Shown piece by piece: positions 6,301 through 45,001 of a stretch of 61,037 bases of DNA. Source of the stretch: Catajapyx aquilonaris (lineage: Eukaryota). Position numbers and translations under genes: made by a program. The stretch lies in contig KZ538574.1 of the NCBI GenBank assembly GCA_000934665.2, positions 1-61,037 on the forward strand. The letters are read 5' to 3'. Position 1 is the first letter of the stretch. Each line of letters opens with the position of its first letter. The notes under the pieces are model-generated. The model saw only the letters and a list, made by a program, of their open reading frames with translations, was not told where the DNA came from and did no database searches.

Positions 6301-9300
6301 ATCCATTTCAGCGAAATGAACCACAAGTTATGCAACTAATTAGAAGTTCATTCCACGAACTAACTCTCATCCACCCTTCCTTTGATTTACTTTTTTTCAG
6401 GTGGCGGAGAATGGAAGTTTGGCGGAGTTCGAAATGCTGTACACAGCGGACCCTTGCAGGTTGAGGGTCAGAGATATCAAGGGTCAAACTGTGGCTCACA
6501 GAGCTGCTGGAAGGGACAGGATCAAAATTCTGCAGTTCATTTCCGTGCATTCGGCCAGTGAGTTCCGCAATTTGCTAGAAGTTTTGGAAATGGCTCAACT
6601 TGCTGTGAAAATGTCCTGTCGCTCCTTCCGTCCCGCTTTTTTGTCACATATTTATCTCTCTTTGATGGACCATTAAACCGCATCCAGTTTTTGCAAAGAT
6701 AACGTAATGTAATTACATGCATCTCTGAAATTTAGCTGCCTAATTGTTTTTGAAATCGAGCAGGTCGAATGGCTTAGTGATTTTCTACCTAACACGAGGT
6801 TGCGCTGGTATCTATTTTAGGTCTGTTGGAGGAGTCTGACTACAATGGCAATACCCCTCTGCACACCGCAATTATGAACGAGGCCCTGGACTCGATCGAC
6901 TTCCTGATGGAGCAAGGGGTGAACACGAATTATCTTAACGAGAAGAATCAGGCTCCGATTCACTACGCCACCGAGTTAAACAAGGCGGCCGCACTTCGTC
7001 AACTGGCCAAACACAAGCATCAGTTGGACGTGATGCAGCAGGGAGACCACGGAAGAAACTCGCTCCATCTGGCTGCCATCCACGATCACGACGATTGCGC
7101 TAGGATTCTGGTATGTATCATTCCTCTTTGACCTTAGAATAGCACTCACTCTGAAACCAATTAGCCCTAATGAAAACACGAGAAAACTCTAGCCGAATTT
7201 GTGTAAAATGTGCCTTGTTCATTGGATTTTCCGTCGGATTTTCTTATCTACAGGGTGTTAATCCTAAGCGTGTCACCAGAAAAGGTGGTGGTAGAGGGCG
7301 CAGGTGTGAGCATTTTTGCATAAGGAACTAGGTGTCGGAAACGGACCCTCACCGAGTTTCAAGTTTGCGGCAGGCAGTGTGCAAGAGGCAGTGTGCACGC
7401 GGCGGAGTGACTCGGTGAGGGTGCGTTTCCGACCCCTAGTTCCTTATGCAAAAATGCTCACACCTGCGCCCTCTACCACCACCTTTTCTGGTGACACGCT
7501 TAGGATTAACACCCTGTATAATTGGCCGTGTGATGGCGTTACTTTAATGGTGTACAAATATTGTGCGGGTCTTCATGTCTGTAGAGCGATGTTTTGCGAA
7601 CAAGAGTATGGAGCTTAAAGACGAGACCCTATACAGAGATGGGCACGAATGAAGTTGTTATTTTTATTTCAGGGTGAGCCGCTGATGTAGGTGTACTAAC
7701 ACGACTCATCCTAAAAATAAAAAGTCAATATGCTCATACTGGTACTGTACTTGAGCTAGTGCAGAGCGCCTTGCTCAATTACCTTTATGGTATATATCGT
7801 GGATGTCATCCCCATTTGTGACATACTGAATATTAGCATGACATCATTGGTGGAAGCTTGTCATGATTCTCCCTTACTGTATCTGCGCAAACACTTCAGC
7901 GGTTTCTTTTCCAATGCAAAAGTTCGGTTTCTAGGAAATTGATGTTATGTTGACGCCAACAATATAAGAAGCCCCTTTTTTTTGTTTGTAATTGGGCTTG
8001 AAGAACCCTGCTCGTTGCAGCCGAATTTTCCTGCGCGATGCCCATGCTTTATGTGAATCTGCCATGAATGTAAGTGTTAAGAAGGTGAGTCGCTACCACT
8101 CCACTCTTGCATTAGGAGCCCTTTCCAAACAAACATCGCACTTGCCAGGTGAGGTCATCGAAGTGGAAATGGCGGACAAAATCGACCTGGAGAAGAGTTC
8201 TGGGGTGCGGAGGAGGGCCTCCAATTTTACCGTGGTCCACAGATGGGTCAATTCAGCCGAAATTATGTGTTCATTCCAAATGGGCGTCAACGAAGTCATC
8301 CTGCAGCTGGAGCAGAAGCCCGAGCGAGGACTGCTGATGGAGGACTTCCTCTCCATAGAGAGGACCACATTCCCCACTCGAGGCTCTCAACACACTCCAA
8401 ATCACGAATTCCACGACTTCACCTTCACCTCCTACTCCTCTCTGGCGTTTCGGCACTTTGGAGACCTGTTCGGGATCAAACCCGAAGAATTCCGGCTGTC
8501 CATCTCGTCCGCTGGGATGAGAGGCATCCGCAACCCGGGAGCCAGCGGGAGCTTCTTCTACATCACACAAGACGACCAATTTATAGTCAAGACTCTTCAC
8601 GACATCGAGGGATACTTCTTGCACAAGGTCCTCTCCGGATACTACATGAACCTGAGTCAAAACCCGTTTACTTTGCTTCCGCGGTTCTTCGGCCTGTACC
8701 GGTATCGATGTCGCTCGCGGAACATCTGGCTGGTGGTCATGAACAATCTCATTCCGTCGTCGCTGATAATGCACCAGAAGTATGATCTAAAGGCAGGTTT
8801 TGTGTTTTAAAGATGGGATAGTAATGAATAAGGATAATGACGGGTGTAGTGAGACGATGTCTTGTGGCAGTTCGGACCCACCGTCTTTTTAACCTCCTGA
8901 GACCCGAGAAGAATTGAGTAACCCAATATCAGTTCCTATTGCATTTTCTGAACATTCTCCCAGTAAGAAACGAGAAAAAAATTTTTAGTTTTAAAATATC
9001 GACAAAAATGGTGACAAACAACCAATGAGAACATTGGCATTCATTTGCTGCTACAGAAGCAGAACGGATGAAAGCTGAAAATTGAAATACCCCTTAATGG
9101 ATCACTCACATAGTGCTCTATCCTCAAAACAATGTTTTTTAAATTCATTTGTGGAATTCGTGGTAGCAATTCCTCTCAGAAGACAATTAAAGATAAATGA
9201 AATTATTTTTTAACGCCACCACTCCAAGCATGGGTCTTGCTCCTTCCCTTCTTACCCGCTAAAGTGGTACCTTGCTATTCTAGATTTTGAAACTGAACTG

Positions 9301-12300
9301 CCTAGTGAAACGCGCACTTCCTTGTGGGTGTATAGGTACAGGCACTTAAAGAAAAGTCACACCCATTCAGTTAAAAAAAATAAAAATAGGATGTCCATTC
9401 AAATGGACATTTTGTCTCAGGAAGAAAAGAAAATTACCAGATCTCTACAGCGACAAAGATTGTCACCGAATTTTTTTTTCGTATTTCCTAATGCACATTC
9501 CTTGCGAATCCCAGGACATTCCATACATTGACGAAATTCGCACTCTAAATATGAGAAAAAAATAAAACTTATCAGATGAGCGCCTTGCTTCAGCAGCGGC
9601 ATCCGCCATTTTTTTCCGCGATTTAATTTTCGCGGCCCAAGTCAGATATTCGACACTAGGTGGCTACAGCTATTGAGGCCAGATTGTAATCATGGGATAC
9701 CAACAGATTGCAGTTCTGTTGGCATCACTAGTTGGCGCCAAAAAAACTTTTCCAGATGTCCAGTATACTGGACGCCGGGTCTCAGGAGGTTAAAATCCCA
9801 CTCGATACTATACTATACCCAAACGCGATTACGTATGGGGAAAAGGATTTCGGAAGACGAGTGTTGTCATGTCAATTATAGGTACGTAGGAAAAGGATCC
9901 CTGTCAGGATTGACTTCGCTCTGCGTAGGTAAAAATAGCAGTAAAAATTGCACTTAATAATATATTAGATAATATTAGCATTCTCTGTGACAATTTCAAG
10001 CACTAAAAGTGGAAAAATCGTTGGTTCCAATTTCATAACAATTCATGGAACAGATATTGATTCTTTAGTTGGAGTGTGGAGTGGGATTAAGACAAGACGC
10101 TGAACTGACCCGAGTTACGCAATAATAGCTACCGCAACATAATTGATTTGAGATGCATGTCACAACCTCTTTATTGCTTCGTTTTCTTGCACTAGTTTGC
10201 ATTTGTTTAATGCAATAAGAATGAAGAGGAATGTCTCTTTAGAATCCACCATCCCATTAGACACTAAATTGGCGCAGCTCCAGTAACTCTTCAGATTCTG
10301 TGTAACTAAGGTAGTTATTTTTTTCCAAAGAGAAGGGGCTGCCTCCTTTCGCCCACCTGCACAAGTTAATACTACTTAGAGCACGCCAATTTGGAATTAT
10401 TATTTTTTGCCTGCCTGAAAATCTGGATACGCCAAATCATATAATATTCAAGTCATCACAGAAAATGCTGATTGGCAAAACATGGCAAGTCACCAAACTG
10501 AAATTTTGCACCAAGCCCTCAAATGTCTTGCAAGTCTCAGCTTTCCTTTTTTAAAAAAATATTTCTGACTTTACTAACTTATAACTACTGACCCTATCAC
10601 TAAAAGTGGCGGGTAGGAGAATAAACTTGGCTTTATGAGATCCAATTATATGGAGATGACGTATATGCTCCTCCGAAACCTTCCGTCTTCTTCTCGATCT
10701 TTATGAAGCCAAGTTCAGTTTCCTAAACGTCACCTAAGATGGCGGTTCATCACTATATAGGGCTCGACATTCCAAAGAAAAGCGTCCAGGTCCGAACGAG
10801 AGAAGTCGTCCCCGACCTTCAAGGACCTGGACTTCATGCAGCACCACCCCGAAGGGATATACCTGGATTCCCGCACCTACAACTTGCTAGTGATGACAAT
10901 CAAGCGGGACTGCAAGGTCTTGGAGCGCTTCCGGATAATGGATTACAGCCTTTTGGTGTGCATATACAACATAGATCAGGCCGCACGGGAAAAAAAGACA
11001 GAAGAGGTGAAGATAGCTAAAGCGATAGAGAAAGAAGGGAGGCGACTGCACATGTCGGCGTCGGCCATTTGTATCGCCAAGCAGCGCTTCATGGCAGGTT
11101 CTGACGAGATTAGTGTACCGGCTGGGGCGATACCGGCTCGAAGCGCGTCTGGAGAGAGGCTGCTGCTCTACGTTGGCATCATTGACATTCTGCAAAGCTA
11201 CAGACTCAAGAAGCAGCTGGAACACTACTGGAAGGCTCTTGTCCACGACGGGAACACCGTTTCCGTACATAAACCGGGATTCTACGCAACTCGGTTCCAG
11301 AATTTTATGAGCCAGAAGGTTTTCAAAGAAATTAAAGATGTAACGCCATTTGGTCAAACAGGCATCGGCTGAAGTATAATGAGTCTATACTAACTTATTG
11401 TCTAGGTCACTTGTGTGTTTACTGATAGGTGTTATGTTACACGCAAAAAGTTTTCAAGCAGCTTTTTGTCGAAATCGGCTCACTGTCAGTATAACGTGCC
11501 AGCCACAATGTGGCACGAAAATAAGAGTTGAAGGACGCATATTGTTTCACAGAACACATGGAGAATAAACCACGATGTTCCCTAGGGTCATGGGCATCAT
11601 TATAGAGCCACCCACATGGCACAAAAGTTCCGTAATCGGAACGTAATCATATTAGGAAAGTGGTATGCCCAATGAATGTCCCTAATGCGAAAGTTATTCA
11701 TCGATGTTGTTTAATGGCTTGCCTTTTATGTGACGTGTTGCTTGGGCATTTATAACAGGGCACCTTTATCATCCAGTCATTCTTGACCTACCAAGATGAT
11801 CCCACGATATCAGTTGCGCATGGCGTCCTCCAGAATAATTGCCATCCAACACTCCCCACCACCATAATTCCAGCTGAGCGAGCTGGGCCTGTGCCTGCAA
11901 AAGACCTGCGCCAACGGGTTCTACCCGATCCACGAGGCAGCCAAGCACGCCTCCTCCCGCACCATGGAGGTGTTCCTGCAGTGGTCCGAGGCCAACGGAA
12001 CACCCAGGGAGGATATGATGACCCTCTTCGACTCTGAGGGCAACGTTCCCCTCCACTCGGCCGTCCATGGAGGGGACATCCGAGCAGTGGAGCTGTGTCT
12101 CCGGTCTGGGGCACACATCTCGACCCAGCAGCACGACCTGTCCACTCCGGTTCACCTGGCCTGCTCGCAGGGTTCCTTGGCCCTCGTCAAGCTCATGTTC
12201 AACATGCAGCCCGGGGAGACCTTGGCATGTCTGGCCTCATGCGACATTCAGAGGAGGACGCCCCTACACTGCGCGGCCATGTTTGACCATCCGGAGGTGG

Positions 12301-15300
12301 TCGAGTATCTCATCGAGCAAGGAGCTGAGGTTAGCTGGACGGGGGGCGGTTACGATGGGATTTTGAAGGTCTACCTACAGTCAAATCGGTTTACAAGGAA
12401 TTTGAGGGGGATACCAAATTCGTTGTAAATGATGGCTTGAAGTGTAAAGCTAGTATTACCGTATCGCAATAAACGCTTCTCAGCAACTTGATAGAAACTG
12501 GTACGGACGCGGTATACAGTACTATACCACAGTGTCCTGGTTGTTCGTCCTCAGTTATCCTGACTCTCTACCACAACCAAAGTGCCTCTCTTGTGTGGAG
12601 CATTGCATACTTGGCAGGATATGCAGCTCCTGACTCTTGTCATGGCCCCCGAATTTCACAGCGTTTCAAATGCAGTAACTGCAGGTGGGACACGAAATAA
12701 TTTACTACATCTTCGGATATAATGTTTCGTAAGAGCACATTAGAAATAGGGAAGAAAAGTTAATGGAAATTCATTCTCTATGGATCTGATATTGAGTGTG
12801 ACCACTTCTTCTGTCTGGAACATTGTGCTAAGCGAACACTGACATTGTTGATTATTCGGTGGCATGCATTAATGATTATTTCGGTTTTTGTGGGGGAAAG
12901 AACTTGATGAAGAAATAGTGTTGCGCTCTCACACCGGCACTGATTCATTGTCATTTTCTGGCTCGGTGGTCGCATTATTTAAATGCAAGCACGCATTTTT
13001 CAGCAGAAGCCCGAAGCAATATCGCCACTAAGATTACTATTAGTTCAGACATACATATATATGTGACGAGGTATAGTGGGTATGTGCCGCCGAGTTATCA
13101 ATTATAATCAATAACAAGGGATGGTCATAATTCGCAAATAAGCTTTGTAAACCCTTTTACACTGCAAGCCCTCAAAATGGTTTGACTGTACTGTAGTTTA
13201 CATGTTTTAGGCTCTGATTAGGTTAAACATTTTTAGTGGAGAGGACGCTAAAGCAATCAGAGTAAGTACAAGTAGTACCTTACGTCACTTTATTGTACGT
13301 CGCAATAAAGTAGGTTCATTATGCTGTAGTATATTGCGATAGAGATTGTACTTCATGTTATTACTATAGGACCTTGTCATTATTACTGTTTAGCACCTAG
13401 AGAGCCTGAAGTATTGTAAATACTCGTAACTTCACAATCGCCACTGGTTGTCAAATGTGTCATTTTCCTGTGGCATGTACTCATTTCTTTGATGTGCCAA
13501 TTGTACACCTCAAGAGCATTGCTGTGCATGACTGTGAGTATCTAAGTGTTCTTTGACTTGTGCTATTGATGTCTCAGACTTTTGCCCACGGGCAGATGGA
13601 TGTTATGGATCGAGAACACCGATCCCCTCTCCTGCTGGCCGCTTCTCGCAGTGGGTGGCGCACAGTCGGGTCCCTTTTGCGCCTAGGGGCCAAGTCCACA
13701 CTGCGTGATGCCTCCCAACGCAACGTCCTTCACTTGGTAGTTATCAACGGAGGGAAACTTGAGGACTTTGCCTCAGATGTGGCCTCGACCCCGGAGGACC
13801 TGACAGCTCTCATGAACCAGAAAGACGAAAGCGGATGTGTTCCGTTGCATTACGCAAGCCAGGCGGGCCACTTGTTGGCCCTCAGGAACCTACTCAACTT
13901 AGGGGCAGCAATCAACTTGAAAAACAACAAGAGTGAAAATGCGTTGCATTTTGCAGCACGCTTTGGTCGGTACCACACAGCCGTGCAACTGCTGGACTCT
14001 GGGAAAGGAAGCATCATCATCAATGAGAGCGACGGTGATGGTCTCACTCCAATGCACATTGCGGCCAAGGAAGGGCACCTGAAGGTCCTCCAATTGCTTC
14101 TCAGCAGGGGGGCTCTGTTGCATAGAGACCATCTAGGACGTACTCCACTGCATCTGGCTTCCATGAAGGGCCATACTAACTGCATGGAGCTGCTTTTGAC
14201 CGTCCACATGTATCTGCTTGACCTGACCGACAAAGAAGGGGTAAGTATAACTCTGCAATATTGCACCAAGCCCCTCCCACATCACTCATTTACTATGCTT
14301 TCTAAACAAGTCATACCATACATCTGTGCATGACTAATAAATAGTTTTCTTTCACTAGAACACGGCTCTGCATATGGCTGCCATGGAGAACCGTCCCAAC
14401 TCAGCTACTCTCCTTCTGGCTGTGGGCTGTCGACTTGTTCAAAACATAAAGGGCCGCAGTCCTGTCGACTACGCCATCGTCTATAAGAACCCGGAAGTGG
14501 CCCTGGCCATGGTCACTGATACTACCAGGTCACCAACATCGATTCCTAGTGGTGCCAAAGGGAGATCCAAATGGGTGATATTCAAACTAGACCACAAACT
14601 ACTTCCATTGCGCTCATTTCCATATGGCTGACAGTTGGGGTCAATAGGATTTATCCGCAGCAAAAATTTTAAAAATCAGGAGCTATTGATTTCAGTCTGC
14701 ATGCATATGAAGTGATATAAGAGCTTACAGGAATTTTAGTCAGGTCAGCCAATCAAATGGGAACCATATCTTATTTGCAGTGGTCCTGTATTTGCCTGGC
14801 TGAGGACTGCCAAGTAAAGATTTCTCTGTAGTGTCCCAGCAAGCTTTACGTGCTTTTTTCTAAAATCAAATGAGTGTTTCCTATACAAGGCAGGTGTGGA
14901 TAACATGTATCATGCATTTTCGAGCAGGGCTGCTGAGGTGATGGCATTGCGTTCTGAGCGGTATCCCTGCGTCACCATAGCGCTGATTGCTTATATGCCC
15001 CGGGTGTTTGAGGCTGTGATGGACAGCTGCATTACTAAAGCAACCTGCAGACAAGATGCTAAGGAATACTTTGTGAGTATGCCACTGAATTGCTCATCCT
15101 CACTTGAGAGTTGTGCACTCTATACATCTTTCTTGCTCCTCTTCCGTCTTTGCTTCCCTCCTCGCTGTTTCTCTGCATCCTGACTTTCGCATCGGCCAGA
15201 TTAAATACACCTTCAAATGTCTGCAAATTCCACGTCCAGATGGAACCAAGGACGGCTCAGAATTAGACGAACTGGCTTGGATACCACTCCCAGCTCTTAC

Positions 15301-22883: not shown

Positions 22884-25800
22884 TCACGATAAGAGAACAC
22901 TCTTGTCATTAAGCACAGAGGCTAAAAGGTTAACATCCTTTAGGGCAAGCTTGACCTCCTCCTCATCCATCCGGAGAGAGATCTTCCTCATCCTTACCTC
23001 CTTGTGAGCCTTGATGTTGATCACTCCCTTGCTCTCCACTAGCTGGCAAAGGCCAAAGAAGTCAGATGCAGCAGAAGTTAGGTTGCGCTTCTTACACACC
23101 CTCGAATACACCTCCATCAGCTATACAAAATTGGAAAAAGGGGAGGAATAAGTCGCTGAAAAACCTGTACCATGAGAGTCATGCTCATGTTACAGACAAA
23201 GTAAAAGTTGGTTTCATTCGAAATGCAATCAACTGTACAAAATCAAAATTCAGTGGACTTATTACAGAAATCTGAAATCCCAACACTGACAACAGTCAAA
23301 GAAATATTCTCAACTCACTTTGGAAACTGTGACCTCCTTCCCACGTCCATTCTTTGCAACTAACAACAAGGTAGCAACCAGAAACTTCTCATGTAGTGGA
23401 AGGGACAATCCTCCATTGTTTCCATCGCTACTGCCATTGTTTCCAGCAAGACGATTTCCGTACACCTCATTCATGACCCTCAGAATGTGCGGGAGGGACA
23501 CTGGTGTGATTGGTTGACCTTGTTGGATATGCTTCTTGGAAGGGCTACCAGGATTGCAACCTAACAGACACCAACCAATTAGAATTGAACATTGCGTGTT
23601 TCATGCAATCACTCATGCACAGCTAATGCTCACCATCATCAGAAGTAAGCTTGAGGACTTGCTGTTTCCTGAGGTCACTCTCCACAACTTCCACAGCCCT
23701 CCGGCAGACATCCAGTGCCTTCCGGGCATCGCCTGAGGAAGAAGCTATCTTTCCAGCCAGATACTGAACAGCAGCAGGTTTCAGAACCTCCCCTTCTCCC
23801 TTCTGGGGACTATCAGTCTGCTTGACCCTATCGGTGATGATCTGCACTATTTCGTCCTTGGTGTAAGGTCGGAAGTGAAGGAGCTCAGGGCGGAGTTCGG
23901 GAAGAGCCTGGAGTCGGGGAAGGATGCGGTCAGTCAGGTCAAGGGCATTCGCAATGCCCACCAGAACCAGGTTGGCAGAGGGGAGTGAGGGCCACTCAAA
24001 TACTGTGTACAGGACAGAATGGGAGTGGGTATCCAGCTGGTCCAGTTCATCTAGCACTAACAAGCTGCAAAAGAAGGAGAGAAATGATTGTTGTAGTGAA
24101 TGATATTTAGTTTCAAATTTAAACACTGGCACTGAGAGACAGGACAATAAATGAAATGTCATTAATGCAATCAGATAATTCAATGGTGCTTCAATTCATA
24201 GATAGTAATGTTCCTCAACCATTGACGTACAATTTCACATGCTTTTCTAGGTGACTAAGGCTGGTGTTATTTTCTGGTCCCCAGTGTTCTAAATTAATGA
24301 GGTTTCACTTGAGGTTTCACTGTTGTATTCCTGATAATAATTAGTTATCTATCCAATCCACTGGGTACTTACATCTTTGAGGAAGAAGAAATTTTCTTGA
24401 CAATGTGCCTGAGTGACTCTCGTTCTGTCTTTCCTTGAAAGGATGGGTCAAGACTCTTTGCAATCTTGGCGTAAATGGCAGATGAGCTTTTCAGTGACAT
24501 ACAGTTGATGAATATCTTCTTGAACATGGTGTTGAACTGTAGGATGCAAAATATGTTCTTAGTAACAACAAAGATCAAGTTACTCCTGACAAGTCATCAA
24601 ATCAAAATCAATCATATCAAAAGTCAAAAATATGCCACGTATTAACATCAAACTGTTTGGAACATACAGTACTTTACACCAATGACGGACTTTCTTCAAA
24701 CCAAGTACTTAACACACACATGGCGATGGCATACAATGATCTCCAATCCCTTACATACCTCTACATTATCCAGGACATATTGAAGGGTTGTTGTCTTTCC
24801 TGTACCAGGTGCTCCAGATATGTAAAGACTGCCAGGAATGCCACCCTCTAAATGCCGCCTCAGGAATTCAGTGACATCACCAATCTGACGCTCACGACAA
24901 ACCAGCTGCAGTGGGGCGGATGTATGCAAAGCCTTCTTTGTGGACTCATAAGGTGACACTGAATATGAAAGTTCATGTAATTTGAACCCTCTAATCATGC
25001 AGGAAGGTCTCAGATTTCATGTGGACTCTGTGAGACTTTAAGATGATTCATCATCTCTCACTACTCCTGGTCAGCAGTAGATTCTTGAGGTGCATTTACA
25101 TGTGAGCGATTTGATCGTGTGATGTCATCCCCGGTGGTAACCCGTATCGTTTGAGGCAAAAATAGATTGTTATTTTTGCCTCAATCAATATTGGTTACCT
25201 CCCTCCACGATGACTTCACTTGTCAAATCCCTCACATGTAAACAGGGCTTTATGCTTTTTGCAACAGTCAGCACCAGGTTATCTGGGGTCTAGTTAGCCA
25301 CAGTTTCAAGATTACATAAATACTGTACAAAATGAAAATATGGCATTTTAAAGGTGCATTTACATGTGAGCGATTTGGGAAGCGAAGTAACCAATATTGT
25401 TTGAGGTGAAAGTAACAATAGATTTTCGCCTCAAACAATACTGGTCACTTGGGTTACTCAGTGACGTTACCGATGAGCGAAGACTTCGCTCATGAAATCA
25501 CTCACTTGTAAATGCACCTTCAATCATCCAGCAGTTATCCCGCATTAGTTCCTATTCAATAAAAATATACGCACCGTCTGGCTGGAAAAGCCTCACGGGA
25601 GTCAACTTCCTGGAAGCAGGGCTGCCCAACTTGAGCCTGGACATGAGCGTTGACGGACTGGCCCTGACAAACTCCGGGCTCTTTTTAGACTTCTTGGATG
25701 GTGAGTCCTCCGCTTCGTCTGCCTCTGCACCTGCAACCGTCCCATCCCTGGGTCGCTTGGTGGCAGGCGACTTGGGTCCCACAGCATTGAACTCCCCAAG

Positions 25801-26811: not shown

Positions 26812-29800
26812 ATGTCGTCGGTGGTGGTGCAGCCTGCTCCTCGACCGCAGCCCAGCAGGGAGAGGCACGACAGGTCCAGGAGCCCCAGACGGCAGAGGAG
26901 CAGCAGCAGAGACCGTAGGCGGAGAAGGTCCAGGAGTCCTGAGAACAGACGGGAACGAAGGGAGTACAAGATTGGGTCGAGGTACTGGAGAGGCGGCAGT
27001 GAAGAGAGAAAGGTGAGACCTGGTAGTATGATTAGAGCCCGTGTATAAAGGCCCATTCACACAGGACATCGACGGTTTTGGTCTTTGGCCGCGTTGACAC
27101 CACGGACCAATCGTGACTCATGTAAACGTGTTGCGCTTGTTTGCATGAGTCATGATTGGTCCACGGCGTCAACGCGTCCAAAGACCAAAACCATCGACGT
27201 CCTGTGTGAATGGGCCTCAATGCAAATCAGTCTAACCCAGTACCTTACGTGTGCAAAAGAAAACTTAAGTAGGCCTGATATACTGAAAATTATAATTTCA
27301 CCACCTTACTGCTACGCCTGTGATGAAAAATGTGGAACTGCTCTAACCGCAGTACATTACCCCAAGCCAGAGAAATCTAATGATAAATTAGCACTAGAGC
27401 AGCACCAGAAGGCATTTAAAAATATCGGGTTATGTACAATGTTATTGTGTTTAGCCAGATATTTTTAATGGCTCAAACTTGCAGTGAGCAAAGTTTGAAG
27501 GAACCCTATGATTCACTTAACACAAGTCATGAAATTGCTTTAAGAAGATTCTGAAAGAAATGAGGTGATTTTTTTCTAGTCACCACCTGAGAGGAGGGAT
27601 GGCAGGCGCCGTGATGACAACAAAGAAAATATGTCGTCGAAACGTAAGCCTGATTCGGATTCCCAGGAGCCAGAGGGGAGCAATAAGAAGGCCAAGAGTG
27701 AGAAGAAAGAGATTGACCCCTTGCTGACCCGCACGGGAGGAGCATACATCCCACCAGCCAAGTTGAAATTGATGCGTGAGCAGATTACAGACAAAGCTTC
27801 CTTGGCCTACCAGCGCCTGGCATGGGAAGCACTGAAGAAGTCGATTCATGGGCTTATCAACAAAGTGAATACATCCAACATCAAGGTTATAGTAGTGGAG
27901 CTGCTTAGGGAAAATGTGGTGAGGGGAAGGGGACTTCTGGCCCGTTCCATTATGCAGGCCCAAGCTGCTTCGCCAACCTTCACACATGTCTACGCAGGAT
28001 TGGTCAGCATCCTCAACTCAAAGGTTAGTTGTAACACAGGATCAACTTTTAGCACAGGCTTCTTTGATACTTAAATACTATAATGGTGAATTGACTGCCC
28101 TAATTTACCTTTCTCATTGTTCCAGTTTCCTGTTATTGGTGAGCTTATTCTGACCCGCCTGATCATCCAGTTCAAACGCAGCTTTCGTCGCAATGACAAA
28201 GCTCAATGCTTATCATCAACCCGCTTCATTGCCCACCTGGTGAACCAGAAAGTTGCCCATGAGATTCTCCCCCTCGAGATAATCACTCTCTTGCTGGAGA
28301 ATCCCACCCGAGATTCCGTAGAGGTTTCTATTTCTTTCCTGAAAGAGAGTGGCCAGTACCTCAGCCAGGTCTCACCAAGGGGTGTTTTTGCAATGTTTGA
28401 GCAGCTCAGGCATGTGCTGCATGAGGGAAACTTGGATGTGCAGGTCCAGTACATGATTGAGGTCATGTTTCAGGTGAGTCAATATTTCAGATATGGTTCT
28501 GTTAGGCCAGGTTGCAGCATTGTGTGTTTTTCTTAAAACTCCAGGTTAACATAGTGGTTTCTGTCCAACAGGTGATGAAAATGGTAACCCTGCGGTTTTG
28601 AGTGAATCACATAATGGCGCAACTCAGCTTTATTGGGTGTTGAACATTATGTTTTCACACAAACCTCCAGTTGTTACAATTTTGCATTGCTATGAGCTTT
28701 TCTTGTGATACTTTTTAAGGGCCGGTTGATCCAAGGCAAGATTTGCATGCAAGTATGGATGTACCCTTATTATTAATTGCAAGTTCATTGTTGCCAACAA
28801 TTATTAATAAGGAAGATAGATACATACTTGCACCAGGGAGCATAATAATTATACTGGTTGCACATAAATCTTGCTTTGGTTCAAGCGGCCCATGCCACAT
28901 AGCCAGGGGGCCTGTTTAATTAGGACCCACACTTTCTTGCAAAATATTGCCAGTAAGCATTCACTTGATGATATGAGTTTTGTCCAGCATATTGAAATGA
29001 ACACGTTTTCCAGGTCCGCAAGGATGGGTTCAAGGACCACCCGATGATCCTGGATGAATTGGATCTGGTGGAGGAAGAGGATCAGTTCACACACTTTCTG
29101 TCCCTGGAGGATGCAAAAGAGACCCAGGACATCCTAAATGTGTTCAAGCATGATCCAGCCTATGAAGAGGGAGAAGCCAAGTATGCATCCCTGAAGAAAG
29201 AAATCCTGGGGGAATCCAGTGGAAGTGAGTCTGGCTCAGGGGACGAATCTGGGGATGACTCAGATGAGGACGAGGAAGGCGGTGAGGGTGGGGAGGAAGG
29301 GAATAGTGGCACCATTGTTGACAATACCGAGACCAATTTGGTGGCGCTCCGTCGCACCATATATCTGACCATCCAATCCAGCTTGGACTATGAGGAATGT
29401 GCCCATAAGCTGCTGAAGATGGAACTGAAGCCAGGTCAAGAGGTGGAGCTCTGTCACATGATCCTGGATTGCTGTGCCCAGCAGAGGACCTACGAGAAGT
29501 TTTACAGGCTTCTGGCCCAGCGTTTCTGTCAGATTAATAAGGTGTATGTCGGACCTCTTGAACAGATATTCCGGGACTCGTATGACACCATACATCGTCT
29601 GGAAACCAACAAGCTGAGGAATGTGGCCAAATTCTTTGCCCATCTCCTCCACACTGATGCCATCTCCTGGGATGTATTGGCCCACATTCGCCTCAATGAA
29701 GATGATACAACTAGCTCCAGTCGTATCTTCATCAAGATCCTCTTTCAAGAGCTCGGAGAATTTATGGGTCTCCACAAACTCAATGAAAGGATCAAGGATC

Positions 29801-31539
29801 CGTGAGTTATTCACTGCTTTAAATGAAAATCAAAAGTAGTTATCCCATTAAAAATATAAATATTCATTTTAATTTTTACTCTGCAGGACAATGCAGACTG
29901 CCTTCGAAGGTTTGTTCCCAAGAGACAACCCTCGCAACACCAGGTTCGCCATCAACTTCTTCACATCCATTGGCCTTGGAGGACTTACGTAAGTCAGGCC
30001 ATGACTCCCTTATGGTGACCTGCAATTCAATCATGTAACTAATCACTTTTCTTCTCACAGGGATGACCTTCGTGAGCACTTGAAGGCCCAGTCAAAGCAA
30101 CGCCCTCCTCCCCCTGTTGCTCCGGTGGCACCTGAAATGCCAGTGATGAGAGTGGAGAGAGTTGGAGATGCATCCAGTGAGGACTCGGACTCAAGTGATA
30201 GCAGCAGTTCATCATCATCGACTACCTCAAGCTCTGACTCCACCTCCACATCCTCCAGCAGCAGTTCCAGTGACTCAGGTGCAACATGCCTCTAATTAAC
30301 CCCTCTCACTTAGCAAATGGATGTTAAATTTGATTTTATAATGTTAATGATATGTATACAGTTGAATCAGGATATAACAGACTTCAAGGGACCGAGAAAA
30401 GTCTGTTACAACCAAGGTCTGTTATAGCCAAATCTCCATTTGTCAACAAAAACACAAGTTTTATGCTTTCATATGCTTATAATGCACACTACTGCATATT
30501 TATTAATGAAACTATCCATAAACATGCAACATTAGCTCACCCGTAACTTAGTCAGGACCCCAAAAATTCCGTCATTTTCTTCTGCCGTCTCGTCCATGCC
30601 AAATATACCAGAAAAATAATTATTTTGACAATTTCGGTAAGTTTTGCTTCAGTGACTCTACGCAGGTGCACACGTGCACACTGAAGCACTTGCGTGCACG
30701 TCTGCGAAGAGTTCGTCCGGGGGGAAATGCCATCATTCAACATGACAATGCTCAGCCTCACCAAAGTCGGGAGACAACCGCCGCGTTGGAGACGATGCAG
30801 TTCCGCGATGTTTTGCCTCACCCACCCTACAGTCCAGACCTAGCCCCCTGTGACTTCTGGCGATTCCCGAAGATGAAGGAACATCTGAAGGGCAAGAGTT
30901 TTGCTTCCGACGAAGAGGTCGCCAATGCAGTGCGTTGTTGGTGTCGTAAACAGCCAGCCTCATTCTTCTCTGACAGCATGCAAAAACTAGTGCGTCGATG
31001 GCGGAAGTGCGTCGGCGGAAGTGCATCGCCGTCGGTGGGGACTATGTCGAAATATGAATTGCTCCTTGGAAAGTCGGCATTTCAAACTTTATCTTGAATG
31101 TGACGTCTTTCATGGTCATCCATGAATAGACCAGGAGGCAAAATTTATTGAACAACCCTCGTACTACTATTGTGCCAGAAAGAATTCGTAATTAATAAGA
31201 TCCCTTATAATCAGTAACAACCTATGTAACCAGTGCCTTATTCCAACAGGTGAAAAGTCAAAGCACAAGAATCAGAAGAAGAAACGTGAGACAGCATCTA
31301 AGAAGAAGGCGACAAAAAGCAAGCAGAAGAGGGAAGTAAAGCAGAAGGAATTAAGACCAAAACAGAAGGATACAAAGGAGAGGCACAGAGATTCCAAGCA
31401 GAAGCAAAAGCAATCAAAGGAAAAGGAAAGGACAACAAAACACAGGCACCAAGAACCTAGAGAGAGGCCATCAGACAGGGAGAGACCTGTAAGGGACTCA
31501 CGAAAATCAGATTCCCATGCCAGGAAATCTCGTCGTTGA
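26812..31539 (+). CDS. CWC22: Pre-mRNA splicing factor CWC22 (MIF4G + MA3 domains), ~796 aa
   Basis: Exons 26812-27012, 27580-28023, 28126-28473, 29014-29801, 29887-29988, 30061-30278, 31250-31539. Motifs [44 protein letters not shown]-rich N-terminus and charged C-terminus. Confidence 0.95.
27049..27217. mobile_element. Palindromic MITE in a CWC22 intron
   Basis: AGGCCCATTCACACAGGAC ... GTCCTGTGTGAATGGGCCT with ~79-bp arms. Confidence 0.8.
30359..30435. mobile_element. Tigger/pogo-like terminal fragment
   Basis: TA|CAGTTGAATCAGGATATAAC; a related end TA|CAGTTGAATCCGGATATAGC lies at 36570. No partner TIR seen. Confidence 0.45.
30666..31161 (+). mobile_element. 5'-truncated mariner transposase remnant with right TIR in the last CWC22 coding intron
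   Basis: HDNAQPH and [13 protein letters not shown] motifs. A duplicated GGCGGAAGTGC frameshifts off the GGDYVE tail. Ends ATTTATTGAACAACCCTCG|TA. Confidence 0.9.
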
Positions 31540-32250: not shown

Positions 32251-35200
32251 TTATGGCAGCAGGTTACATTTGTGTCCTTTAGTGTACTGCTGTGTGTCGA
32301 CGCCCTCCCCCACTGCTGGGATCTGAGAAGGGATGTGGCAGGGTGCAGTGACTGCTAGGTACGGAGGACACTGGTAAGGGAAATTTGGGGTGGCGTCAAG
32401 GGACAGGACCCTGGACTGGTGGAAGCGGTTGGCCTCCATCTCATCCATCACATTGCGGAAGGTCTCCAGACACACCTTGTCCTCGCCCCATGGATCCCTC
32501 CTGGCTGCCTCAGCATATGTCTGGTAAAAGACATCATCGGACATATCCACTCCAATACTTCGCCACAGGGCACGGATGTCATCAGATGTTCGAGGCTGTA
32601 TGGAGGGACAGAAGTAAGGTAAGATAAGAGATCCTTGGCAGAAGTACATGCAGGAGAAATAAAGTAGCAGTGTGCATTTTTGCAATCTTGATTAACAGTC
32701 TTGGTTTGATCATGATTCACTTATGATTTTTCGTTTCAAAGATTTTGAATTTATTGTTGAAGCAAGAGTAAGACGTTTTTCTCGTAAGATGTCATGATCA
32801 TGGTAGTGAGTTTTTGTCATGCAATGGAAACTGGACATATTTGCAAGAGGTGCATAAGCTGTTGCAAAAAGGATGCATTCTTTGGTTTGTGTAAATAATG
32901 CGACATGAATGTGAAATTTATATTTGTACACATGGGATACTTTTTTACAGTGACTTGTACATTTCTTAGTTGTGCTGTAGTACTCAACTAGAGAGAACTA
33001 TTTTGTGCTAGACATTGCATTTTAAGAAGCCGCCACTGAAAAGGTCTTCTCTGTTTATTTTCAAAGTAGTTTTTTTTTGGTCCAATATCTGGACAGGATT
33101 AATGTTTGTGTTAGGTTAAATTATTACTTACGTATATTGAGTGATAAATGTATTTTCATACGAATGAGTTTTTGTACAGGTTGCAGGGAAGTGTATGAAG
33201 GGAATTATTACTTGTGTTCACTGACATACTGTAAGGCTATTGTATTACAGTTTCCATTTTATTTCTGTGAAACCAAGTGACATTAAAATGGATTTGTCGT
33301 GTATACCATGTGGTTAGTACTAAATTGACTACAACTTTGTTTATATGTCACCATGAAAATGACATGAGGAATTCCAGAACTGGGAGAACCATCCACAGCA
33401 CCTTTTTCCACTAACATGGAAGAACATTTTGGAATTCTCTCTTCCAACTTCCAAGATGTTTGTTGGTTTTAGAGTAATCCATAATGGTAGAAGGTGGGCT
33501 TGCTACATAACCAAATTAACCAAATGGAATCTAGTAGCATAGTCATTCATTCACATCCAGGAATGATAACCACACTGCCAATGCTGCTTGTTCATTTTAG
33601 GCTGCCAGATGCAATTGGGTGATTTGAGTGTAATTTGGAAAACTATTTTCCCATTTCTGAACTCTAAGACCCATTTCCATAGTGACATGTAAAAGCTCAA
33701 GGGGTCTACACATGAGATTACAAATCAGTAGGGGCCATGCTGTCCTTCATCCTGGAGCAGCCTGTGCCAATTGGAAGATCCTTACGACTAAAGGTAGTGT
33801 CAAAACTGCCAGTGTGTAGACCTCTGAAGTTGCATGAACCTACTCACCTTAAAGAAATCTTCTGGCCCAACTCCCATTACTGTGTAAATGGATGGGCTGA
33901 TCAGAGATTTTGCATCAAGCTGATCCCCATAGTTAGTACTATCTGAAACCTTTCTAACTCTTGGAGCACCCAGATCAGTTCTGATGGTGGGAACACCCAA
34001 AGGTCGCATCTCAGCCTTTTCATAGGCCTTGTCATGAAAGTCCATGAATGCGCATCTGTACGAGGAAACAAAAGAGGTGTCTTGCCCCTCAACTGCTGGC
34101 TGTAGAATACTTTCTTGTGTGAGCTTGGCTAGTGCAGGGGGAGTCTCTTCCCAGCTCATGAACTTAATGAACTTGGGGTAACACATTGTTCCACAGCCTT
34201 GATCCAAGCAATTATCACATGCTTCCATTATGGACGGGAGCAAGTGTGGTTCCACGGCCACACCCAACTGGCCACACACTTTAGCAAAGTCAGACAATTT
34301 CAATATACCTATATTGTCCTAGAGAATGGGAATAAAAGAAGCACTGTAATATTAAATAATTAAATTATATTAAAGATGCACCATCACCAAGTAAAAGCAC
34401 CGACCTTGTCATAAAATCGGATCATATCCTCAAAGTCCTGTATGGAATAATGGCGCTTGTCCAGCCTCATTCGTATCTTGTTGGCCAGAAACCATAACTC
34501 ATGTTCTGGTACAGGCCTGCGGCCAGGAGGCCTCAGTCCTAGAAAGTCTTCCATACCATAGACGTTGCGGTGTACTGGACCAGACTCCTTGCTCTCATCA
34601 ATCACTATTGGGGGTCTAATCCTGAGAAAAACATGATTTAGAATGGCGCAGTACTCCTCTTGGTTACAACTTGCCCGTACTTGGTGGAAGGTTTCCCAAT
34701 TCGTGGCTTGGTGTGCTTGAGGAACTCGGCTTGTCTGGCCAGAATTTCCTTTGGCTTGAGCACATCGCTATAGTCAAAGCAGCACTTGGTGACCCTACCA
34801 GTGAACTCAACACCTGTCGGCTTGCCAAACATTTGTTGTGGATCAAACCTCTCATTGTAACTAGGGAAGCAGAAGAGATCAGAGCAGGCCATGGAGCAGC
34901 TGTAATGCAAGGCCAACAAGCAACATACCCTCTCCTCCTTTGTTCCGCTGCCTGGTAATCCTTATGCGACTTGACGTACATGTCATGGGCCACTCGACTC
35001 TCTTCAACCACCTGTGGGTGACTTTTCCTGGGGTTGACTATCGGACCAGCAGGTGGACCTTACAACCAGGATGTCAGTATTTATTTGGTACCAATAGCAC
35101 GTGAACTTACTGCGCTCCACCACCTTTCCAAATGTTTCCTTCTCAGGGTTCATGTCTTTTGGCAAGTTGAGTGATGCATCACGCACCTTTCCTAATGGCA

Positions 35201-35748
35201 TCCTGCTTCTGGCATATATTGCCTCTCGCCTTGTTAGGTTCAAGTTCTGGAAGTCAGTCAGTGGCTGTGGGGAAACTATCTCCGCCATCTGCGACGTTGG
35301 GAATGATATTGTCATTGAATCTATTCAAGTTAAACATGGAGGATTAAACACAATACCAACCGAGCCACCTTCGCCGGGTGTGGGATAGATGCATTGTTCA
35401 GGAATAGGTTGGACTTCGGCTAATTTCAAATCTCTTGCTATCCTCACTCTTTCTTCCAGGGTGGTGCACATTTTGGGAGCTGTGACCTTCCACCTCATGC
35501 AGTCCCATACTGATTCAGAGAAGCATTTCCGTACCCCCGCCTGCGTAACAAATGTAACCCTAACTTATGGTTGAAAAAAAAACTGGATGTGAAGCTAGAT
35601 CTCTTTGGAGTCAACTCACAGGATTGACTTCAGGGAAACGGTTGAACTGTGGGCTGCATATCAGGCGGCATACTTTCCCTGTGTTCTCTTCGATCACTTC
35701 AGGGTATATTTGATATACAGGGTATGGAGACTCTTCTTCTTTATCCAT
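32251..35748 (-). CDS. EFHB: EF-hand domain family member B-like (EFHB/CFAP21), ~609 aa
   Basis: Phase-consistent exons 35748-35620, 35540-35361, 35288-35111, 35058-34929, 34860-34681, 34621-34405, 34318-33848, 32595-32251. Motifs GVPTIRTDL..PRVRKVSDSTNYGD, YVKSHKDY..EQ..R.Y, VCLETFRNVMDE. Confidence 0.85.
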
Positions 35749-37925: not shown

Positions 37926-38202
37926 TAATGCTGTGTACAGTACACTTGCACAAATCTGGATTGTCATCTCCATATGAATCTTCCATCAATCCTGATAACT
38001 CCTTTATCAGGTATTTTACGTTTTCCCCTTGATTGCTACATCATCTTTCTGTCTCAAAGAATGTTAGCAAGATAGGTAATCTGTCGGAAGCCTATATTTG
38101 GCTTGGCCCGCCAAGATAATTGGTGCAAATGGTTCTTGATAGCACTACCTTTAAAAGTGAACCCAAGAATTAATTTCAAAGAGGTGTTTTTGAGCCAATG
38201 CA

Positions 38203-38319
38203 NNNNNNNNNNNNNNNNNNNNNNNNNNNNNNNNNNNNNNNNNNNNNNNNNNNNNNNNNNNNNNNNNNNNNNNNNNNNNNNNNNNNNNNNNNNNNNNNNN
38301 NNNNNNNNNNNNNNNNNNN
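38203..38319. other. Assembly gap
   Basis: Run of N followed by poly-G. Confidence 1.
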
Positions 38320-38879
38320 GGGGGGGGGGGAGGGGAGAGAGCTGCAATTTCTCAACAACAAAGTGTGGCTCACAAATATACCCACATAAACAATTGTCTA
38401 ATTAATGTACCGCACTGTAATACGTATATTCTGAAACAAGCTGAACAGATGAGAGCTGTCATTTATCCCTTCCATAATTTTACAGTGCTAGCTATGCAAC
38501 TGATCCAACTGATGATAATGATATAAATGCACGTTGTATTTCGCTCAATCTTCCTGCAATAACTGCAGCATCATGTTAATCCTCCCGTCCTCGAGATAAA
38601 GCGGCCAACTTCTCCGGCTGGATACGATAATAAAACGACGTCCTGCGGGCATAATATAATCAGCGGAGACAGAAGGGGGCGGTCTCGGTGGACTTTAAAT
38701 AGCCGCGGTCAACGACTCGGACAGAATGGCGAGAATGTACTAGCACCATACAGATAAGAGATGACGACGGAATCACCCCCACAAAATATTCCCACGTAGA
38801 AAAACACCGTCTGGTTAAACACATTGTTTAAAATGTCCATTCAGGGTGCCAAAAACCCGAATTAAACCAACGCACCTTG

Positions 38880-44200: not shown

Positions 44201-45001
44201 GGGGTATGAATTATTATTATTGTAGTATGGTACCAGAAGCATTCCAAAAAATTTGGCAAGGATTAAAATGACTGAAATCTACCTCGGTTTTGCGCCATGC
44301 CGGCCACCCCAGGGTTATACCGGCATGCCTCATTATGTGAGGTAATACGGTACTATTGCACAGCTAATTGTAGGTGTTGTGAAAAATGAATATTATATGA
44401 AGGACAATTGCTAAGAAGCCTTACCTTATCTCTTAATTTTCCAGCCGCTTTCCTAACTCAGACGGTATGTTTGGACGACACGACAGTAAAATTTGAAATC
44501 TGGGACACAGCGGGACAAGAGAGGTATCACAGTCTGGCTCCCATGTACTACAGAGGGGCACAGGCAGCGATTGTGGTCTATGACATCACTAACCCAGACA
44601 CATTTGGGAGGGCTAAGACCTGGGTGAAGGAGCTGCAAAGACAGGCCTCCCCCAACATAGTAATAGCACTTGCTGGTAATAAGGCAGACCTGGCCAACAA
44701 AAGGGTGGTGGAATACGAAGAGGCCCAAGCGTATGCGGAGGAGAATGGCCTTCTCTTCATGGAGACCTCTGCAAAGACCGCCATGAATGTCAATGACATC
44801 TTTCTGGCAATAGGTGAGTCTTCATTGGTCCTTAATCATGATCTACACGTACATAAAAAATTGACTGCAACACTTATTATCCACACAGCCAAGAAACTTC
44901 CAAAGAATGACCAGGCGGCAGGTCCAGGGACGACTAGCCAAGCCAGGCGGTTAGTAGAAACGGATACCCAGCAGAAGACCCCAACCAGCTGCTGCAAGTG
45001 A
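41238..45001 (+). CDS. Rab5: Small GTPase Rab5, 214 aa
   Basis: Exons 41238-41400, 44445-44813, 44889-45001. Motifs [33 protein letters not shown]-terminal CCK. Confidence 0.97.
43530..44350. mobile_element. pogo/Tigger-like non-autonomous element in a Rab5 intron
   Basis: TA|CCGTATTACCTCACATAA ... TTATGTGAGGTAATACGG|TA. Confidence 0.85.
43940..44120 (+). mobile_element. tRNA-derived SINE inside the preceding element
   Basis: A-box-like TGGAGTAGGGG, B-box-like GGATCAAATCCC, then a GGTTTTCTGTGGTTTCCC...GGCCACAGCCGCTTCCTTCC body recalled from insect SINEs. Boundaries approximate. Confidence 0.7.

Follow-up and report, generated by a model that had tools for sequence, protein, structure and literature searches.

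A probably intact and diverged type I PIP5K gene nested in an intron of TRPA1 in Catajapyx aquilonaris

Introduction

When a lipid kinase gene lies within an intron of a sensory channel gene, is it a gene in its own right, and does its position say anything about its function? This question is raised by a stretch of 61,037 nucleotides (nt) from Catajapyx aquilonaris (contig KZ538574.1 of assembly GCA_000934665.2, positions 1 to 61,037 of the forward strand), hereafter called the window, in which a PIP5K coding region is found inside an intron of TRPA1. Our analyses suggest that the nested kinase gene is probably an intact, lineage-restricted and fast-evolving duplicate of an arthropod type I PIP5K (PIP5K59B/PIP5K1 type), reduced to the kinase core and separate from its host, a reading that we favour with some reserve. 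We present the locus, the relatives of the kinase and the signs of selection on it, and then weigh this reading against its alternatives.

The host intron and the kinase exons

The host gene was delineated by tblastn with TRPA1 of the cockroach Periplaneta, whose residues 150-247 and 247-400 align to positions 6820-7113 and 11874-12335, respectively. Together with the Pfam ankyrin families and the splice sites, these matches define two ankyrin-repeat exons on the + strand, at 6820..7110 (residues 150-247) and 11874..12329 (residues 247-398). They are consecutive in the host protein, with a phase 0 junction at residue 246/247. The donor CTG|GTATGT at 7110/7111 and the acceptor TTCCAG|CTG at 11873/11874 delimit a host intron of 4763 nt (7111..11873, + strand). 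The remaining TRPA1 exons run downstream to ~19436 in the tblastn alignments, and the transmembrane exon used as a query retrieved TRPA1-type proteins only.

The kinase exons lie in the two open frames of the region that are longest on the + strand, 7992-8810 and 10761-11372, and are supported by Pfam and by structure matches. Exon 1 (8064..8792, + strand) comprises 243 codons from the ATG at 8064, codes for the N-lobe and ends at the DLK motif. Exon 2 (10761..11372, + strand) comprises 203 codons followed by a TGA stop (11370-11372). Between them lies a putative intron of 1968 nt on the same strand (8793..10760), with a GC content of 0.39, in phase 0 between Lys243 and Gly244, and bordered by the donor AAG|GCAGGT and the acceptor TATATAG|G. 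All 120 of the 120 matches of PIP5K relatives in the window fall on these two exons and nowhere else. A hexamer scan from the PIP5K stop to the next TRPA1 exon revealed a single poly(A)-signal-like sequence, an AATAAA at 11564..11569 (+ strand), 192 nt past the stop, which may serve as the poly(A) signal of the kinase gene. The entire PIP5K coding region is thus contained in one TRPA1 intron, on the strand of its host. An earlier note on this DNA, made from the letters alone, had described a two-exon, stop-free PIP5K nested in the intron 7111-11873 on the same strand; Pfam, the structure matches, the TRPA1 alignments and the contiguity of the flanking exons in the host protein all agree with that description.

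A type I kinase core

Both exons match the Pfam family PIP5K (PF01504) far above its score cutoff of 27 bits. Residues 152-243 of exon 1 correspond to profile positions 7-99 of 288 (E 8.8e-33, 114 bits) and residues 1-185 of exon 2 to positions 100-287 (E 1.1e-45, 156 bits), so that the two pieces abut in the profile with neither gap nor overlap. Among the sequences of solved structures, exon 1 matches residues 7-193 (E 1.7e-53) and exon 2 residues 194-381 (E 4.4e-53) of 4tz7_A, a PIP5K type I alpha that we take to be the zebrafish enzyme. The best type II chains, those of PIP4K, gave E values of 3.5e-18 and 2.4e-19, approximately 35 orders of magnitude worse than type I.

In PIP kinases, catalysis involves the GxSGS motif of the G-loop, the ATP-binding Lys of the I-I/V-K-T motif, the Asp of MDYSLL and the Asp of IID. 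In the alignments with 4tz7_A, the G-loop GASGS (8538-8552), the ATP-binding Lys in FIVKT (8580-8594) and MDYSLL (10938-10955) are identical between the two proteins, as are the IID of GIIDILQ (11175-11195) and the activation-loop LEH that carries the specificity Glu (11217-11225). All the motifs listed in the earlier note were therefore recovered. One departure is found in the activation-loop Lys-Lys pair: all 27 canonical proteins compared have Lys at its second place, where the window protein has Gln (residue 395), with a Lys one place earlier.

The product is a bare kinase core, of 446 amino acids (aa) from the ATG at 8064 or 411 aa from the ATG at 8169. Homology to relatives starts around residues 38-44, which is compatible with either start codon, and the stop is 11 codons past the last residue aligned to relatives (435). 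The canonical insect PIP5K proteins among the matches are ~750-950 aa long and possess a long C-terminal region. We also noted a possible mini-intron of 64 nt in the first 30 kinase codons (8085-8148, AAG|GTGAGT ... CCAG|G). Its splicing would shift the frame, in which case the kinase would have to start at the ATG at 8169.

Relatives, phylogenetic position and evolutionary rate

We searched for relatives of each exon in large protein collections. With exon 2 as query, a word-indexed search of 5.8 billion clustered proteins yielded 5111 matches, the best 120 of which are 49-56% identical to the query and are mainly hymenopteran PIP5K59B or type-1 alpha proteins. With exon 1, HMMER found 3757 matches among 1.84 billion representatives, of which only short fragments of the best-conserved part exceeded 58% identity. 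Across the complete core, identity peaks at 54% (BLASTP, gapped), or 60% on the kept alignment columns, and the best of 79 related metagenome loci reaches 53.5%. Thus, no relative above ~60% identity was found in the 5.8 billion clustered proteins, the 1.84 billion representatives or the 79 metagenome loci, although the absence of a close orthologue carries less weight because the genome of the window is not among the annotated ones. Exon 2 alone compared with the Atlas gave only sub-threshold bacterial rows, a result that is uninformative for half a domain.

A maximum-likelihood tree of 38 rows and 376 core columns (LG+C20+F+G4) placed the window protein with 15 arthropod rows with supports of 100/99. 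This set includes named proteins of a beetle, a moth, a bee, a sawfly and a wasp. Placement within the set is weakly supported (60-78); the sister group consists of seven rows that the Atlas labels no more closely than 'Arthropoda'. Forcing 16 arthropod rows together without the window protein cost 14.4 log-likelihood units and was rejected (approximately unbiased test, p 0.006), the arthropod group having been set after a first tree and most of its rows being representatives without species names. An initial FastTree tree of 523 columns including the tails had placed the window protein among other long branches; in view of the mixture-model trees of the core alone, we attribute that position to long-branch attraction. 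The end branch of the window protein is 1.02 changes per column long, approximately six times the median of 0.16.

The long branch is specific to the kinase. The PIP5K core is 57-60% identical to named insect proteins (median 58%), compared with a median of 83% among those insects. By contrast, three exons of its neighbours in the window show no acceleration: the CWC22 exon has a median identity of 71% to named arthropods versus 71% among them, and two TRPA1 exons have medians of 63% and 68.5% versus 67% and 71%. TRPA1 overall is 57-58% identical to its counterparts in insects of many orders, and its ankyrin exon shares 68-72% of its residues with insect TRPA1 and 52-62% with the proteins of decapods, a stomatopod and a springtail. 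CWC22 is ~70-74% identical to proteins of insects, horseshoe crab and clam alike. On these identities alone, the DNA would be assigned to an arthropod and probably to an insect, and none of the searches returned an annotated protein that is nearly identical.

Selection on the kinase

To assess whether the coding region is maintained, we derived a consensus from 27 canonical arthropod- and vertebrate-type proteins. The window protein matches it in 84 of 100 invariant, 54 of 75 near-invariant, 71 of 148 intermediate and 10 of 42 variable columns (chi-square p 5e-13). As neutral decay would not respect the conservation classes of the columns, this gradient makes selection visible. The frame is free of stops over 446 codons, for which the chance is ~5e-10 with random codons. 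In addition, the GC content at third codon positions (GC3) is 0.68 and 0.65 in the kinase exons, similar to the 0.58-0.81 of the host exons and well above the overall GC of 0.39 in the kinase intron. These features support the view that purifying selection, rather than decay, acts on the nested kinase. The open frames, the conservation gradient and GC3 bear out the earlier description of the gene as intact. So do the core identities, the long branch and the missing tail for its proposed divergence from typical insect PIP5K1 towards a bare core. The phylogeny against PIP5K59B and PIP5K1 proteins, proposed as a check, puts the window protein inside the arthropod PIP5K1 clade with the supports given above.

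The kinase intron and the origin of the copy

The junction that preserves the register of the protein is DLK|GS in phase 0, with an AG at 10759-10760 and a donor at 8793 that is GC (AAG|GCAGGT), not GT. We enumerated every join between GT or GC donors at 8760-8810 and AG acceptors at 10700-10830. Eighteen joins are open and in frame, and two of them keep the conserved residues past the junction: that of the GC donor at 8793, which gives the 446 aa product, and that of a weak GT at 8802, by which the invariant DLKGS would gain three residues. The frame of exon 1 continues five codons into the intron before a stop, and an in-frame TAG directly precedes exon 2. The acceptor is at least as strong as the TRPA1 acceptors. 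The kinase intron is predicted to be removed at the GC-AG pair, and the form with the GT at 8802 may be made instead.

We then compared this single intron with those of related genes. Introns were mapped in 79 metagenome contigs that code for relatives, by refining the ends of tblastn segments to GT/GC...AG pairs, with positions given in Osmia numbering. Nine core positions recur: 92/0 (8 loci), 124/0 (6 loci), 135/2 (5 loci), 175/0 (11 loci), 226/0 (7 loci), 281/0 (9 loci), 326/0 (7 loci), 427/2 (10 loci) and 472/0 (6 loci). The window kinase has none of the nine. Its single intron, at 274/0, precedes the common 281/0 site by seven codons, and 61 of the 62 loci that cover 274/0 run through it in one segment, 37 of these 61 having introns elsewhere. 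The exception, locus L066 (8254-8742 of a metagenome contig), has an intron exactly at DLK|GS, in phase 0, and none at 281/0. L066 codes for a canonical-type PIP5K1 that is otherwise nearer to canonical proteins than to the window protein. The DLK|GS site of L066 and the 281/0 site might represent one shifted intron or parallel gains. Some loci harbour intron-poor canonical genes, in which, for instance, residues 70-428 are uninterrupted.

The absence of all nine recurrent positions fits a copy derived from cDNA. Neither an A-run past the 3' end of the kinase nor a flanking direct repeat indicative of a target duplication was found, which is expected as such marks decay at this divergence. A retro-origin is thus plausible, and a DNA-level duplicate of an intron-poor parent is possible. 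As to the single intron, it may have been gained in parallel at a proto-splice site (AAG|G). It may also have been kept from a parent with an L066-type site, in which case the copy would be a half-processed retrocopy or a DNA duplicate, or it may be a shifted version of the 281/0 intron. The earlier note had proposed a retro-derived or duplicated paralog. The part of this proposal that stands is a diverged copy devoid of the family introns; the choice between the two routes is blurred by the presence of one intron, at a site shared with L066, and by the existence of intron-poor canonical genes.

Relation to TRPA1

Beyond position, we found no sequence tie between the kinase and TRPA1. None of the 79 related metagenome loci has TRPA1-like flanks, and a literature search returned no report of a nested TRPA1-PIP5K arrangement. 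We considered a TRPA1-kinase fusion protein and rejected it, as a splice from the TRPA1 exon to the best upstream acceptor (8020/8021) would not preserve the reading frame and would run into a stop. The AATAAA downstream of the kinase is on the TRPA1 strand, and its use would make transcripts end inside the host intron. Human TRPA1 currents are reported to change when phosphatidylinositol 4,5-bisphosphate (PI(4,5)P2) is depleted (PMC7081373), and hypersensitivity to heat and to capsaicin has been described in PIP5K-alpha mutant mice (PMC3516557). From these accounts, a coupling between the two genes is conceivable but not indicated.

Repeats and neighbouring genes

Two repeat structures lie in the host intron. 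Upstream of the kinase, a hairpin resembling a miniature inverted-repeat transposable element (MITE) spans 270 nt (7249..7518), with 109-nt arms that are 98% complementary and a 52-nt loop. The kinase intron contains a piggyBac-type non-autonomous MITE of ~900 nt (8887..9795), with a TTAA next to each of its 14-nt terminal inverted repeats. Apart from the arms of the hairpin itself, no other copy of the host-intron repeats was found in the window.

Further downstream, the window codes for a Cdc6/ORC-like AAA+ ATPase (23310-25016, - strand), the splicing factor CWC22 (27580-30295, + strand) and the EF-hand protein EFHB (32251-35324, - strand), and it contains an exon of a Ras-family small GTPase (44390-45001, + strand) and a WD40-repeat exon (56258-56626, + strand). 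Between the CWC22 exons and the next gene, an open frame at 30552-31097 (+ strand) has a weak match to the DDE_3 transposase family (E 2e-4) and is probably a decayed Tc1/mariner-type element. A run of N at ~38200-38320 marks an assembly gap.

Discussion

If the nested kinase is an intact duplicate, it would be transcribed from its own promoter inside the TRPA1 intron, its single intron would be removed at the GC-AG pair and its transcript would end at the AATAAA at 11564. The product of ~410-446 aa would phosphorylate phosphatidylinositol 4-phosphate to PI(4,5)P2, and its membrane targeting or its regulation may have changed; its position in TRPA1 would be an accident of where the copy landed. 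Its splicing, expression, enzyme activity and independence from TRPA1 are all predictions from the DNA. Several observations weigh against this reading. GC donors are rare, and all eight TRPA1 donors resolved in the window are GT. Changes affect 16 of the 100 invariant columns, as opposed to 3-12 in the five distant family members that we checked; they include K395Q in the activation loop and a cluster at residues 125-133. Judging from these columns, constraint on the protein is relaxed or shifted. Lastly, a short isoform of Drosophila PIP5K59B is reported to be inactive in vitro and the long C-terminal region to matter (PMC8921834), so that activity of a core-only protein is not to be assumed.

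Some of these observations would also suit a recently dead copy, namely an intronless retrocopy split by a 1968-nt insertion between DLK and GS, which would not be spliced and whose halves would still be open through recency. The GC instead of GT at the donor, the MITE within the interrupting sequence, the exon 1 frame that closes after five codons, the TAG that directly precedes exon 2 and the changed invariant columns are all compatible with such a history. We nevertheless regard it as unlikely, given the good GC-type donor context and an AG exactly at the codon boundary, a combination for which we estimate that a random insertion would give G(T/C)...AG in about 1/128 of cases. Furthermore, the same site and phase holds a real intron in the canonical-type L066, and the long branch, the steep conservation gradient and the high GC3 argue for selection over most of the history of the copy. 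The same divergence bears on the idea that the gene is not a duplicate but the only PIP5K59B-type gene of the species, relocated and shortened. Its branching inside the arthropod clade would be in line with this, but a housekeeping PIP5K should have stayed at ~83% identity, the median of the named orthologues, rather than 57-60%, while CWC22 and TRPA1 in the window show ordinary rates. The window protein is also without the long C-terminal region of the canonical proteins of 750-950 aa. We consider a sole gene quite improbable.

Other explanations accept that the gene is expressed and differ in what its product does. Mammalian PIP5KL1 serves the canonical kinase as a scaffold, a regulator or a partner in dimers, and the nested gene might code for a non-catalytic or re-purposed protein of that sort. 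The changed invariant columns, including K395Q and the cluster at 125-133, the core-only architecture and the inactive short fly isoform point in that direction, whereas the residues known in the PIPK literature to bind ATP and Mg and the specificity Glu are all kept; we consider a non-catalytic product very unlikely. Alternatively, the kinase could be co-transcribed or co-regulated with TRPA1 in sensory neurons, where locally made PI(4,5)P2 would tune the channel. The two genes share a strand and one chromatin domain, a long pyrimidine tract that ends in TTGCAG (8015-8020) resembles an acceptor, 43 nt before the ATG, and might be joined to an exon further upstream, and the effects of PI(4,5)P2 depletion on human TRPA1 and of the PIP5K-alpha mutation in mice would suit such a unit. 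Yet a splice from 7110 (phase 0) to 8021 meets a stop before the kinase ATG, so that no fusion would result and translation behind a long upstream open reading frame would be poor. The AATAAA in the intron, on the same strand, would truncate TRPA1 transcripts and not help them, TRPA1-like flanks are absent from all 79 related loci, and where a gene lies says little by itself about a function in common with its host. A channel-plus-kinase unit thus seems hardly credible. The most specific version of this idea, in which the kinase is a supplier of PI(4,5)P2 restricted to sensory neurons and co-regulated with TRPA1, its fast evolution and altered activation loop reflecting channel tuning, is in our view highly speculative; if true, it would make the locus a genomically hard-wired module of a channel and a lipid kinase. 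From the present comparison of sequences, the kinase is most likely an incidental passenger in the TRPA1 intron.

As an intact duplicate, the nested PIP5K would exemplify a lineage-restricted, fast-evolving copy of a normally very conserved lipid kinase, kept open under selection within a sensory channel gene. As a natural experiment, it could also show what a type I PIP5K is able to do with its core alone, and it could offer an example of an intron that was gained, kept or shifted at a proto-splice site, with DLK|GS on one side and the usual site seven codons downstream on the other. Should co-expression with the host prove true, the locus would establish a genomic link between PI(4,5)P2 synthesis and TRPA1. 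So far, the nested kinase is within ordinary gene-family evolution.

Comparison with known systems

The copy differs from processed retrogenes with a gained or kept intron in that it has no visible poly(A) or target duplication and in that the site of its one intron is shared with L066. It resembles them in being compact, devoid of the family introns, fast-evolving and inserted at an unrelated locus. A second parallel is skittles (sktl), the second type I PIP5K of the fly, the likeness being that of a second type I gene in an arthropod genome. sktl reportedly also lies inside an intron of another gene, inscuteable (a 1997 paper in Mech Dev). One Formica protein named sktl groups with bee and wasp proteins named PIP5K59B. 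According to PMC8921834, Drosophila has no PIP5K genes other than sktl and dPIP5K.

The closest counterparts are insect PIP5K59B (dPIP5K) and vertebrate PIP5K1A-C. Compared with them, the window protein is 446 aa long rather than ~750-950 and has no C-terminal tail, and its gene is located inside TRPA1 and has one core intron as opposed to roughly nine recurrent core positions. It shares with them the full PIPK domain, the LEH of the type I activation loop and the catalytic motifs.

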